A stretch of DNA of 64,000 nt. Origin: a virus. Lineage: Duplodnaviria; Heunggongvirae; Uroviricota; Caudoviricetes. The DNA is taken from the IMG/VR virus record IMGVR_UViG_648028025_000005; one strand, written 5' to 3'. The notes under the pieces are model-generated. The model saw nothing but the letters and a program-made list of their open reading frames with translations. It did not search any database and had not been told where the DNA came from. Shown piece after piece: positions 1 to 4,633 of the stretch. The translations under genes were made by a program, and so were the position numbers. The stretch's first letter is position 1; every line of letters begins with the position of its first letter.

Positions 1-651
1 TTACCAGTCAATCCAGAGTGGACCGTGTTCAGCGTAAATATAACTGTACACATCCAGATTATATTTGTGGTCTGTTAAGAACAGGCCGCAAATACATGCC
101 GAAGCTTCCAGTGCAGCGGCTCTGTTACTGAATAACCATGTAGCAACATTCCAGCGTTTTTCTGCATCCCAGTCTTTCTCAAGGCCTGATACCATGAAGA
201 AACCGTTAGTGTTGCCATCAAATAATTCTGTTTCCAAATTTTTAAGCAATGCCTGATGGACTCTTGCCAGGTATTCCGCCGGAATTTCGCCACGAATTCT
301 AATGAGATTGTCATAAACAAACATGTTCCCCGCATATGGCGATTTTTCTTTCTTGTTTTTTAAACCAGCATCATGAGCAAACTGATCAATTTCTTCTTCC
401 GTTGGTTTCGTATTGATGTTTTGCGCTGTCGTTTCTGCAATTTTATTTGCCATACTCTCTGAGTCGTGTTTATTTATAGACGCACAGAAATACAATCCGG
501 TAAACGCATCGCGCACATTACGAGCCATATTATCAGTGTCTTTTTTCGTTACCGATTCCAATTCAAGTTCGTTCAGACGATGACGAAGTGTGTGTGCTGC
601 AATCTCCTGGATTGAAGGAGGTAAATCTTTAAATTCCATCGTCAACCTCAT
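1..651 (-). CDS. hypothetical protein; distal gene of the leftward (pL-side) early operon of prophage A
   Basis: 216-aa ORF from track; stop TAA at 1-3; ATG at 649-651 overlaps the stop of an upstream 50-aa ORF (TGATG); no family motif recognised by eye. Confidence 0.5.
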   Translation of the reverse strand: MRLTMEFKDLPPSIQEIAAHTLRHRLNELELESVTKKDTDNMARNVRDAFTGLYFCASINKHDSESMANKIAETTAQNINTKPTEEEIDQFAHDAGLKNKKEKSPYAGNMFVYDNLIRIRGEIPAEYLARVHQALLKNLETELFDGNTNGFFMVSGLEKDWDAEKRWNVATWLFSNRAAALEASACICGLFLTDHKYNLDVYSYIYAEHGPLWIDW

Positions 652-803
652 CAGTCAGTGTTTCTGGCTAACCAGCGACGCGCGCCAGCTTCAGTTTTAA
701 ACGTTTTGCTTTTGGTATACGTCATCGCGGTGAACGTACCGTCCTGGTTGGGAAACACGCCGCATACCAGAGATTCGTTGTTGCCAAGATTGAGCGTATC
801 CAT
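651..803 (-). CDS. small hypothetical protein (50 aa), translationally coupled to the 216-aa ORF
   Basis: ATG at 801-803 preceded by GAGG; stop overlaps next start; below six-frame track length cutoff; first ORF after the conserved leader element. Confidence 0.3.
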   Translation of the reverse strand: MDTLNLGNNESLVCGVFPNQDGTFTAMTYTKSKTFKTEAGARRWLARNTD

Positions 804-816
804 GTTGACCTCATTC

Positions 817-971
817 CCCCTTAACGCCGGGTCGCGGAACTAAAAACCTGCTGCGCTGTTATACAAAGTGTTCCCGCCGTCATGTTCATACGCCTCGGGC
901 TGGCTACTTAACCCCTGACCACTGCTTGGTAACTCGAAGTATTGCCCGGCGTTCTGTGGGGCGGGGTGGGT
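817..971. promoter_or_regulatory. conserved ~155-bp leader-like element just outside O_L (copy A)
   Basis: near-identical copy at 49659-49813 in prophage B; in both prophages it lies between the O_L palindrome and the first leftward gene. Confidence 0.4.
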
Positions 972-995
972 GGTTGGTGTATGTAATCTACAAGT

Positions 996-1022
996 AAAAA
1001 CTGTTTTGTGTCAACAGTTTTT
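996..1022. promoter_or_regulatory. O_L-type palindromic operator (AAAAACTGTT-N7-AACAGTTTTT)
   Basis: perfect inverted repeat read from sequence; same half-sites recur in the repressor/cro intergenic region at 2029-2057. Confidence 0.45.
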
Positions 1023-1079
1023 AATTGTTGTTTTGGGCAAAAAAATCCCTCGAAAGAGGGAGTATGAAAATTGTTCAAC

Positions 1080-1367
1080 TCAGATAGAGAAGGGAAATTG
1101 TCGCCGAGAATGTGTCACGCTTACAATCTCAATGCTTGAAGCAGCTACTCTGTACAGGATTATGTAGTTAGGGTGGGTCACGATCTCTCTCAATCCAGAA
1201 ACCCGTTCGCTTGGTGGATATAAGTACGGATGCTCAGATAGAGGTAATACCGATGTTTCAATGCGTATTTTTAGTCTACGTGCTGCCGGTGGGTTCTCCT
1301 TGGCGATGTAAGTTATGATCTGGCGCAAATCATCGCGAGCAGACGGTAGCCATAAAATGGGTAACAT
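1080..1367 (-). CDS. parE: type II toxin, ParE/RelE superfamily (ParE of a three-component paaR-paaA-parE module)
   Basis: 95 aa; ParE-like C-terminal pattern LREIVTHPNYIILYRV...HSRRQFP; start overlaps stop of upstream antitoxin ORF; operon position. Confidence 0.85.
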   Translation of the reverse strand: MLPILWLPSARDDLRQIITYIAKENPPAARRLKIRIETSVLPLSEHPYLYPPSERVSGLREIVTHPNYIILYRVAASSIEIVSVTHSRRQFPFSI

Positions 1368-1987: not shown

Positions 1988-2095
1988 TATTCAATTTTAC
2001 AGGTAAATACTGTTAAAAGCATCACAATAAAAAACTGTTGATTGCATACAGTTTTTTATTGTAGGCTTTGCTTATAGTTTTTAGAGGAGGGCAAA
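1988..2095. promoter_or_regulatory. divergent repressor/cro promoter-operator region (O_R-like), prophage A
   Basis: palindrome AAAAAACTGT-N9-ACAGTTTTTT at 2029-2057 plus an extra ACTGTT half-site upstream; lies between divergent repressor and cro-like genes. Confidence 0.5.
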
Positions 2096-2790: not shown

Positions 2791-3300
2791 ATGAGTAATG
2801 ACAAAAAATTGACACTGAGCGTTTACGAAAACAGTCCGCACATCTGGCGTGGCGGTTTATCTGATGTGGAGCTGGCAGAGTGGTTGATACATAAAGCTAA
2901 TGCGCTGCTCTGGCGTTTGTCAGCCAGAGAACAGCGCAAGGAAACCAGAATAAAGCTGGCTGATGCAGAAGCGTGTGCCGGGCTTATTGAGGATTATACA
3001 AATCTTGGTATTTCTTCAGCAGAGAGTGATCCCATTCAGCCTCTGAGCAGGGAGTCAATCCAGCACGCTGGTTGTATGGCACATCTTGTAACTGCTCGTC
3101 AACATGAGGTGGGTATTGGATCACTTCCGGTGGGATATTCGCTGATTCCAGAGCTGGTTGAAGCAAGAAAATCAGTTCAGAAAAAGAGAGATGACGCACT
3201 TCAATTATTGAGAGAGCACTATGGCGCGATACCAGAATGCGAACAGCATCGATACCCTGAAGGTTATGAATGGATGCAGTCTCTTTTTGAAGTTCGCTAA
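2791..3300 (+). CDS. hypothetical early protein
   Basis: ORF track 2740-3300; likely ATG at 2791 (MSNDKK) after ydaT-like stop. Confidence 0.45.
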   Translation: MSNDKKLTLSVYENSPHIWRGGLSDVELAEWLIHKANALLWRLSAREQRKETRIKLADAEACAGLIEDYTNLGISSAESDPIQPLSRESIQHAGCMAHLVTARQHEVGIGSLPVGYSLIPELVEARKSVQKKRDDALQLLREHYGAIPECEQHRYPEGYEWMQSLFEVR

Positions 3301-3406
3301 TCAATATGTCGAGACGAAGGTATGTTTCGGCGCGCAGCCAGGCTCTGTAATCCGGGAGCATTTCGGGGCTGTTACACCAGCGGTTTGTTGCTGCAACATT
3401 TAATAC

Positions 3407-4633
3407 ATGAGCCTGATAAAGGCTTTTCAAAAAATACATGTCGAACCTCCTCTGGTTCTGTCGATTGGGAACCACAGATTATATCCGGAGGAAGGTTCGG
3501 CACCAGATGAGGTAGCCATGCGTGATTACGCAAAAGTTTCTCCGCGATTCTGGCTGGGAGAAACGGGGAGAGAACTTAGAAAGGCGGGTGCAGAAGCGCA
3601 AGTTGTTGCTTTTTACCTGATGACATCCCCTCACGCAAATATGCTGGGTTTGTATTACCTGCCAGTTTTATACCTTGCTCATGAAACCGGGCTTGGTCTG
3701 GAAGGGGCTTCAAAGGGGCTTAAAAGGGCTGTTGAAGCTGGTTTTTGTAGCTATGACCATGATGCAGAGATGGTCTGGGTCCATGAAATGGCAGCCTGGC
3801 AGGTTGGGGAAACGTTGAAGCCTGGCGATAACCGTTGTGCAGGTGTCAGGAATGAGTATGCATCATTACCTGAAAACGCTTTTCTGTCAGTGTTTTACGA
3901 CAGATATAAAACGGATTTCCATCTGGATGTGAGGCGGAATAATAGCCGAAATTCGGTAAGGGGCTTCGAAGGGGCTTTTAAGGGGCTTCGAAGCCAAGAA
4001 CAGGAACAGGAGCAGGAGAAAGAACAGGAACAGGACAAAAACACTATGGTTCATGGCAAAAAAAACACCACGAACCAGGCAGGGGATGTTCAGACCGTCA
4101 ATCCTGGTCAGCCAGCAGGCACGACACCGGAAGCCGATTCAGCGTATGCGCTGAAAGCCGATTCGGGCGCTGTGCAGCAGGTGATGACCGCAAGGCCGAA
4201 GCAATCACACCAACTGCAGCAGCCTGAAGCCGATTCCGCCATTCAGCGGGAAGCCGATCGGGTAGTCCCGGAAAACACCGGGCTGTCTGTGGGACGAGTG
4301 GATTATCCGGATGTGTTCGAACAGGTCTGGCGGGAGTACCCGTTGCGTGCCGGAGCAAACCCGAAGAAATCCGCATTCAGTGCCTGGAAGGCCAGATTGC
4401 GCGAGGGGGTGCCACCAGAGACCATGCTGGATGGTGTGAGGCGTTACGCGAGATACCTGGCGGCGACCGGGAAAGCGGGAACGGAATTTGTTCAGCGAGC
4501 GACGACGTTTTTTGGGCCGGACCGGAATTTTGAAAACCCCTGGTTGCTCCCGGTAAGCGGCACGAACAACCAGCGTTGTGTGAATCATATTTCTGAACCG
4601 GATACCGAAATTCCGCCGGGATTCAGGGGGTGA
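3407..4633 (+). CDS. phage replication initiation protein (O position); start uncertain
   Basis: 408-aa ORF upstream of DnaC-like loader; internal acidic EQEQEQEKEQEQ linker; alternative start ATG 3518. Confidence 0.55.
   Translation: MSLIKAFQKIHVEPPLVLSIGNHRLYPEEGSAPDEVAMRDYAKVSPRFWLGETGRELRKAGAEAQVVAFYLMTSPHANMLGLYYLPVLYLAHETGLGLEGASKGLKRAVEAGFCSYDHDAEMVWVHEMAAWQVGETLKPGDNRCAGVRNEYASLPENAFLSVFYDRYKTDFHLDVRRNNSRNSVRGFEGAFKGLRSQEQEQEQEKEQEQDKNTMVHGKKNTTNQAGDVQTVNPGQPAGTTPEADSAYALKADSGAVQQVMTARPKQSHQLQQPEADSAIQREADRVVPENTGLSVGRVDYPDVFEQVWREYPLRAGANPKKSAFSAWKARLREGVPPETMLDGVRRYARYLAATGKAGTEFVQRATTFFGPDRNFENPWLLPVSGTNNQRCVNHISEPDTEIPPGFRG

Follow-up and report, generated by a model that had tools for sequence, protein, structure and literature searches.

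The first 803 nt of a 64,000-nt stretch of Caudoviricetes DNA (IMG/VR record IMGVR_UViG_648028025_000005; the whole stretch is hereafter the window) contain two leftward open reading frames (ORFs), which a preliminary description, made from the sequence alone, presented as an unknown 216-amino-acid (aa) protein and a coupled 50-aa ORF at the start of a leftward prophage operon. A sequence search found window positions 1-1100 to be 100% identical to many E. coli O26 chromosomes, and in the O26 strain RM10386 the NCBI annotation places the DNA of the window in a prophage adjoining yccA. We find that the prophage is a lambdoid one of E. coli O26, akin to Qin, Rac and CP-933P, and that the two ORFs are the genes nearest the promoter in its early-left (PL/dicBp-type) operon. 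The first of them encodes a 50-aa DUF1391 protein and the second a 212-aa acidic protein, and just beyond the edge of the window a third gene, encoding a 69-aa basic protein, converges on the second. The C-terminal domain of the 212-aa protein, termed CTD-X, and the 69-aa gene make up one exchangeable two-gene cassette. The features of the locus are collected in Table 1.

No family had been recognised for either ORF in the preliminary description. For the 50-aa ORF this did not hold, as its product matches Pfam DUF1391 with 103.8 bits (cutoff 27.3) over profile positions 1-47 of 48 and is 88% identical to YdfA of K-12 and 84% identical to YdaF, the latter among the proteins that the same description had named for comparison. 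The 50-aa ORF is a real gene under purifying selection and a member of the YdaF/YdfA family, with Nei-Gojobori ratios of nonsynonymous to synonymous substitution (dN/dS) of 0.09-0.26 against YdfA, YdaF and the mEp460 copy. The segment comprising the DUF1391 gene and its leader has matches in 4394 of 5426 (81%) complete E. coli genomes, at a median of two places per genome. When the 50-aa protein was compared by sequence with solved structures, the best match was lambda gpD (E = 0.16), which we rejected as chance, and PADLOC-DB 2.0 returned only a marginal match to AbiEi (E = 0.047). We also noted that DUF1391 genes are labeled "head-DNA stabilization protein D" in phage records ON470580, ON470583, ON470595, PV340562 and others. 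This label looks like a propagated misannotation, since the insignificant match to gpD is the sole similarity of this kind that was found.

As a longest ORF, the large gene extends from 651 to 1 on the minus strand, encodes 216 aa and ends with a TAA at 3-1. Translational coupling had been proposed through the TGATG at 653-649, in which the stop codon of the 50-aa gene and the first ATG of the large ORF share an A. The TGATG is indeed present, but this ATG is probably not used. It lacks a purine-rich stretch or Shine-Dalgarno sequence ahead of it; the second ATG (M5, at 639-637) has a GAGG upstream of it, at 649-646, from which it is spaced by 6 nt. In addition, the phrog_2151 profile (212 positions) aligns with residues 5-216 of the 216-aa ORF (4.7e-147), the NCBI annotation of identical DNA gives 212 aa, and nearly all of the database homologues listed begin with MEFKDLP. 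Based on these four observations, the large protein most likely consists of 212 aa beginning at M5, and the two genes would therefore lie 11 nt apart without overlap, which is near enough for coupled translation. Phage mEp460 has the same junction layout. The large gene is moderately AT-rich, as first described (39-45% GC in 300-bp windows).

The large ORF is without a family in the sense that no meaningful match was found in Pfam, NCBIfam or PADLOC, but it does match, over its full length, phrog_2151, a PHROG without an assigned function. A search of 5.8 billion proteins found 153 clusters. Where an organism was named, these came from Escherichia, bar one from Salmonella and one labeled only Enterobacteriaceae, and almost all of the clusters among the matches listed were at least 65% identical to the 212-aa query. 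As an exhaustive HMMER search of 1.84 billion representatives gave only 35 matches, no deep alignment of the family is possible. No full-length 212-aa protein was found in isolated-phage records. The 212-aa/69-aa gene pair is carried by ~11% of complete E. coli genomes, O157:H7, O26 and O111 included. The protein is acidic (isoelectric point, pI, 5.2) and has no membrane segment (maximum 19-residue Kyte-Doolittle hydropathy 1.16). BLASTP comparison with SieB, KilR, YdaE, RacC and YdaG of Rac gave nothing below E = 2, and DicB was likewise dissimilar; homology of the large ORF to N, SieB, Kil or DicB was considered and rejected. The best match of the 212-aa profile in a sequence search of solved structures, to Noc (E = 0.055), was rejected as chance.

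The 212-aa ORF is a real gene with a modular structure, in which a constant N-terminal part (the helical MEFKDLP module, hereafter N-module) is joined to CTD-X. The N-module matches four further PHROGs and is found fused to unrelated C-termini in phage mEp460, in Shiga toxin (Stx) phages and in many prophages, and its alleles are shuffled relative to the CTD-X half. It is also the less constrained of the two halves, with dN/dS of 0.32-0.71 compared to 0.13-0.16 (at dS 0.58-0.68) for the C-terminal half. Two Salmonella proteins, P0142 and P0139, carry CTD-X at 27-32% identity behind a different constant N-module. In Stx phages, the MEFKDLP-type module heads a 147-aa protein (~70 Stx-converting phage records), whose gene lies between DUF2303 and PAPS-reductase genes, far from the immunity region and with neither a DUF1391 gene nor a convergent partner. 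Structure prediction and fold search, as suggested at the outset, were carried out for the large ORF and resulted in no functional assignment. The full-length AlphaFold2 (AF2) model was poor (predicted local distance difference test score, pLDDT, 62.5); with the Salmonella sequences added, CTD-X was modeled with pLDDT 78.2 and a predicted template-modeling score (pTM) of 0.72. The modeled elements follow the order beta-beta-alpha-beta-beta-alpha-beta, the modeled fold is a generic alpha/beta sandwich, and Foldseek found no match for the models in BFVD at E<=0.001.

The convergent 69-aa gene is the most informative feature of the locus, and its place outside the window kept it from view in the preliminary description. 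It is likewise under purifying selection (dN/dS 0.19-0.25). Its product matches phrog_4274 (1.2e-51 for the E. coli protein and 1.5e-20 for the Salmonella partner) and is soluble and basic in both genera (pI 9.4-9.9), a charge opposite to that of the acidic CTD-X that is kept in E. coli and Salmonella. Pfam and NCBIfam scans of the 69-aa protein gave nothing meaningful, PADLOC-DB 2.0 gave no match for it or for the 212-aa protein at E<=0.1, and a scan of one genome per species found no homologues of it. Neither protein is similar to YdfB, YdfC or any other Qin protein. The pairing of the two genes was apparent from either side. All 35 viral contigs with the 212-aa gene, found via the N-module, also carry the small gene, and all 68 viral contigs found via the small protein have CTD-X convergent beside the small gene, one of them being of the Salmonella type. 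In the complete E. coli genomes, CTD-X was found in 737 places and the small gene in 742. The Salmonella CTD-X genes (those of P0142 and P0139) are located after cox in an int-C-cox prophage and are again followed by a convergent small gene, the product of which is 44-52% identical to the E. coli 69-aa protein and has the same RRGPAGV.L tail. CTD-X and the 69-aa gene are thus one exchangeable two-gene cassette. We also observed that codons 3-6 of the 69-aa gene contain a run of seven A residues (ATGCCAAACAAAAAAAGA), with frame-shifting differences in 4 of 35 and 7 of 68 viral-contig copies in the two scans (L014, L018, L022, L033 and L138-L144). These differences could reflect sequencing error or on/off switching based on slippage.

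At least four other cassettes occupy the same slot, most of them with a small partner of their own (Table 1). The Pfam and NCBIfam scans of the alternative cassette proteins also gave nothing meaningful, and the PADLOC matches were only marginal (E>=0.014). With the exception of the mEp460 cassette, where the flank differs, the convergent small genes start behind a common ribosome binding site and start sequence, GGAGGATAAAATG; an apparently conserved "MEDKM" is this Shine-Dalgarno sequence together with the true start. Given the shared N-module and GGAGGATAAAATG flanks, the variable unit begins where the N-module ends and reaches as far as the small gene's start codon. On the far side the cassette is thus bounded by GGAGGATAAAATG and a conserved non-coding stretch towards DicF. 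The DicF-proximal part of this non-coding leader is nearly invariant in comparison with Qin, and ~195 nt upstream of DicF are 77-82% conserved in four of five Salmonella loci compared. A scan of four Salmonella loci gave no DicF at the Rfam gathering score; in two of the Salmonella loci a C4-type antisense RNA is present further along. Ahead of the small convergent genes we noted a conserved GC-rich hairpin (GCCGGAU...GUCCGGC), a second hairpin at the same position in both genera with a stem sequence that differs between E. coli and Salmonella, and an invariant CTCCAT...ATGGAG repeat that could mask the Shine-Dalgarno sequence. Fold z-scores of this region were between -2.0 and -3.3.

Table 1. 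Genes, domains, signals and related cassettes at the locus. Positions are those of the window unless a locus or protein is named; L001 is the source-genome locus.
Feature	Position	Strand	Basis or remark
212-aa acidic soluble protein gene, phrog_2151, RefSeq WP_000394543.1	639-1 (ATG 639-637, stop 3-1)	minus	ORF, PHROG, PGAP (NCBI annotation pipeline), homologues, dN/dS
MEFKDLP helical N-module (MEFKDLP...AF.GLY)	residues 1-~55 of the 212-aa protein		
CTD-X, C-terminal alpha/beta domain	residues ~98-205 of the 212-aa protein		
69-aa basic protein gene, phrog_4274	L001 11791-12000	convergent with the 212-aa gene	annotation; ends at the base before window position 1
Gene junction	640-653	minus	TGA stop 653-651, alternative in-frame ATG 651-649, GAGG Shine-Dalgarno 649-646, 6-nt spacer
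50-aa DUF1391 gene, YdfA/YdaF homologue, RefSeq WP_000380316.1	803-651	minus	Pfam PF07151, 3.6e-30
Operon 5´ leader, ~180 nt	804-984	minus	nearly identical to the Rac racR-ydaG intergenic leader
Predicted PL-like sigma-70 promoter, TTGACA-18-TAGATT	1014-985	minus	10/12 consensus positions
Operator-like palindrome, AAAACTGT-N9-ACAGTTTT	997-1021	.	overlaps the -35 element and spacer of the predicted promoter
Second copy of the palindrome	2031-2055	.	divergent repressor/YdaS-like (cro-like) promoter region
Terminator-like hairpin and T-run	1061-1046	minus	closes the repressor/PaaA2/ParE unit and parts it from the PL-type operon
ParE-family toxin gene, 95 aa	1080-1367	minus	Pfam and PGAP annotation
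PaaA2-type antitoxin gene, 63 aa	1367-1558	minus	Pfam and annotation; PGAP name "relB" (RelB-family antitoxin)
Repressor gene, 133 aa, HTH_3	1586-1987	minus	Pfam and annotation
"ECs1072 family phage-associated protein" gene	2984-3439	minus	flanked by the YdaT-like gene and the rightward early gene that follows it
DicF	L001 11400-11451	minus	Rfam, 77 bits (gathering score 48)
STnc100 match, below threshold	L001 11246-11386	minus	Rfam, 37.4 bits (gathering score 47), E = 9e-6
Conserved non-coding stretch upstream of DicF, ~195 nt	L001 11466-11660		
Salmonella copies of the ~195-nt stretch	L007 7180-7378; L008 7181-7371; L090 3389-3579; L092 3171-3365		cox-type prophages
Hairpins and CTCCAT...ATGGAG repeat upstream of the 69-aa gene	L001 11700-11790		also in aligned Salmonella and E. 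coli loci
N-module protein of Stx phages, 147 aa	L002 5001-5444		phage ArgO145 gp22
Alternative cassette: 112/119-aa protein and 64-aa partner			phrog_4987
Alternative cassette: 186-aa protein and 80-aa zinc-ribbon partner			phrog_10133
Alternative cassette: mEp460 121-aa protein and 66-aa partner			phrog_34441
Alternative cassette: Salmonella C-terminus and 70-aa partner			
Alternative class: 129-aa protein			no partner

The neighborhood of the ORF pair is that of a dicBF-type operon. Leftward of window position 1 in the source genome lie, in order, the convergent 69-aa gene, DicF, dicB, a DUF1482 (ydfD-like) gene, a RecE-like exonuclease gene and an integrase gene; DicF, dicB and the DUF1482 gene form a dicBF-type downstream set that falls entirely beyond the window edge. 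The order is that of Qin of K-12 (ydfA-ydfB-ydfC-dicF-dicB-ydfD), and the counterpart in Rac is racR-ydaG-ydaF, with sieB convergent; the ORF pair is accordingly the head of a dicBF-type operon in which ydfB and ydfC are replaced by another cassette. On the other side, the repressor gene is divergent from YdaS-like (cro-like) and YdaT-like genes. The claim that the pair are the first genes of the leftward operon is correct for the PL-type operon, but a separate leftward unit (repressor, PaaA2 and ParE genes; 1987-1080) is located upstream of it. The lambda N/sieB/kil-type position proposed for the pair was borne out, as it directly follows the predicted PL-equivalent promoter and operator, in the slot of ydaG-ydaF with convergent sieB in Rac and of ydfA-ydfB-ydfC in Qin. 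Three further observations concern the neighboring DNA: the toxin/antitoxin pair (1080-1558) occupies the position of lambda rexAB; the ECs1072 family gene runs against the rightward early genes and so is a further case of a convergent gene inserted into an early operon; and the spacer between DicF and dicB contains an STnc100 match that is below threshold.

The predicted PL-like promoter aligns with a TTGACA...TATAGT sequence in Rac. The palindrome pattern AAAACTGT-N9-ACAGTTTT occurs exactly twice in the 64 kb, once at this promoter and once in the divergent promoter region of the repressor gene, and had no matches in 100 shuffles. The leader was considered as a structured RNA (put- or nut-like), which was rejected on a fold z-score of +0.32 and the absence of an Rfam match at E<=0.1. 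For the counterpart promoter of CP-933P, PL933P, OR-like operators and ~100-fold repression by PaaR2 and by YdaS were shown experimentally (PMC8630535), and in Qin a polycistronic transcript that starts upstream of ydfA is repressed by DicA and processed to DicF (PMC10448788). By homology with CP-933P and Qin, and from the sequence, we infer that the PL-type operon is repressed by the PaaR2-like repressor at the palindromic operator and read through to DicF and dicB. The O26 prophage is probably heteroimmune to CP-933P, in that its palindrome is unlike the GTTTAGTAA-type repeats of that prophage, though the two have a ParE-family toxin/PaaA2-type antitoxin pair in common.

Comparison with characterized prophages sets these features in context. 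The operon resembles dicBF of Qin in its first gene (YdfA/DUF1391, 88% identity), in the DicF, dicB and ydfD-like gene that follow, and in an upstream repressor gene of the same orientation. It differs in having the 212-aa and convergent 69-aa genes instead of ydfB and ydfC, a repressor of the PaaR2 type, and an inserted PaaA2/ParE pair that separates the repressor gene from the promoter. The likeness to Rac lies in the DUF1391 gene (YdaF, 84%), in a predicted promoter and ~180-nt leader that are almost identical, and in a lysogen-type gene (sieB in Rac) that runs towards the leftward genes from their 3´ side, whereas in Rac ydaG precedes ydaF and there is no N-module protein. SieB is a membrane protein, and that of Rac is unrelated in sequence to the soluble basic 69-aa protein of the O26 prophage. 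Of the Rac genes named for comparison in the preliminary description, ydaF has its homologue in the 50-aa gene; the large ORF is unlike SieB, KilR and YdaG. With the immunity region of CP-933P of O157:H7 the locus has in common a CI-like PaaR2 repressor, a PaaA2/ParE2 pair, a PL promoter with OR-like operators (predicted for the window) and unassigned ORFs downstream; the 18-bp palindromes of consensus GTTTAGTAA in CP-933P contrast with AAAACTGT-N9-ACAGTTTT in the window (Jurenas et al. 2021, PMC8630535). According to that study, the ORFs that follow PL933P could not be given a function. This type of operon, the logic of its promoter and the family of the 50-aa protein were already known; for the 212-aa and 69-aa proteins, the only families are PHROGs without an assigned function. 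Our literature search found no paper on these two proteins (ybl81 and the RefSeq accessions included) or on a hotspot at this slot, and the pair is an uncharacterized accessory cassette of lambdoid early-left operons.

Collectively, these data suggest the following account. The PL-type operon would be silent while the PaaR2-like repressor sits on the palindromic promoter operator, and upon derepression one transcript would run through both genes to DicF, dicB and the ydfD-like gene, such that the two-gene region would also supply the 5´ portion of the DicF precursor. While PL is off, the opposite strand would give rise to the small basic protein; the large acidic protein would be produced only upon derepression. 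One partner may target the cell or a phage that enters it, with the other as its neutralizer, and either could be the effector; the arrangement would be akin to toxin/antitoxin pairs or to exclusion combined with self-immunity, with convergent transcription possibly reinforcing the switch between two states. The operon, family and cassette parts of this account, taken alone, we hold with high confidence. The step by which CTD-X and the 69-aa protein become a putative interacting effector/neutralizer pair is more tentative, and considered by itself we lean slightly against it, though we prefer it to each of the alternatives below. It is favored by three observations: the pairing outlives a change of backbone, of N-module and of ~50-70% of residues, the opposite charges are conserved, and the slot's other cassettes come with partners of their own. 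The complete account, with the cognate-pair step included, we regard as evenly balanced between holding and failing.

Several points weigh against this account. No consensus-quality promoter was found for the 69-aa gene, so that we assume the lysogen to express it. In E. coli itself, the two genes are linked over only ~560 bp of contiguous DNA, which could reflect hitch-hiking, so that independent support for the pairing comes mainly from the comparison with Salmonella. The 129-aa class and the N-module protein of Stx phages lack a convergent partner, and therefore not all N-module proteins require one. A convergent layout is atypical of toxin-antitoxin pairs; genes of type II systems are co-directional in one operon, and those studied here are convergent in both E. 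coli and Salmonella. The modeled CTD-X fold offers no functional clue. Lastly, the promoter and operator are predicted from sequence, and the experiments cited for their counterparts come from relatives that are probably heteroimmune.

The 212-aa protein could instead be a stand-alone early effector, for host takeover, anti-defense or superinfection exclusion (the first and last of these as first suggested for the locus), with the N-module as a scaffold or docking part, the C-terminal domain providing specificity and the small gene an independent moron at a recombination hotspot. Effectors commonly combine an invariant N-terminus with a variable C-terminus, the repressor-controlled early operon also encodes the host-directed DicF, DicB and YdfD-like protein, and N-module proteins without a convergent partner do exist, as in the 129-aa class and Stx phages. 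However, the pairing of CTD-X with the small gene persists at 27-52% protein identity, on another backbone and with another N-module, which is hard to explain without a functional tie, and the protein neither resembles SieB, KilR or DicB nor has a membrane segment or a PADLOC match. We thus consider a stand-alone effector unlikely, albeit the strongest of the competing explanations.

A regulator of the lysis/lysogeny decision, of the CII or antirepressor type and acting on the convergent promoter or gene, was also considered for the large protein. In phage 186, cII directly follows cox, the position in which the Salmonella relatives are found. Some of these relatives have an HTH_3 domain (XRE-type helix-turn-helix, HTH) inserted between the N-module and CTD-X or other C-termini, and one matches a "CII-like regulator" PHROG through its HTH. 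The E. coli 212-aa protein, however, is acidic (pI 5.2) and showed no HTH or other DNA-binding signature in Pfam and NCBIfam scans, and the prophage already has a YdaT-type CII equivalent on its rightward side (PMC9986795). We therefore regard a regulator as improbable. That the ORFs are decaying or non-functional and the region matters only in supplying the 5´ portion of the precursor transcript of DicF/DicB, as might be supposed from Qin, where ydfA, ydfB and ydfC have no assigned function and DicF is cut from a long transcript (PMC5069750, PMC10448788), is hardly credible given purifying selection on all three genes, intact frames in hundreds of genomes and protein-level conservation that reaches Salmonella.

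Returning to the effector/neutralizer account, a more general form of it would make the slot (between the DUF1391 gene and DicF in E. coli; after cox in Salmonella) an undescribed hotspot of convergent effector/neutralizer cassettes, a new family of exclusion-with-self-immunity or toxin/antitoxin-like systems switched by the lysis/lysogeny decision and convergent transcription. This generalization is speculative and we think it somewhat doubtful. SieB-Esc of P22 and lambda and BstA with its aba element are prophage exclusion genes that lie near the repressor/PL region, are expressed from the prophage and have a cognate element that leaves lytic growth of the prophage itself unharmed. The resemblance to these systems is one of functional analogy only, with no relationship in sequence or fold, and the partners at the O26 locus are separate convergent genes. 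The hotspots of P2-like phages and P4-like satellites are similar in that a fixed slot with conserved flanks receives many unrelated alternative cassettes; they differ in phage type and slot, and in the O26 prophage one flank of the slot is inside coding sequence, at the end of the N-module, and no cassette protein matches a known defense model (Rousset et al. 2022, PMC9122126).

The two ORFs are real and unexplained genes, and nothing so far points to an unusual activity. DicF and DicB control cell division, metabolism and phage receptor use, and DicF also affects virulence in enterohaemorrhagic E. coli; to our knowledge, the promoter-proximal genes of dicBF-type operons have never been given a function. 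The interchangeable gene pairs, their conserved flanks and the one pair that extends across genera turn "hypothetical proteins" into a concrete two-gene hypothesis. If the pairs are modules for exclusion, or of a toxin-like kind, that are coupled to the switch of the prophage, they would represent a new class of prophage accessory function, and should they prove to be otherwise, the annotation of a very common prophage region would still be cleaner.

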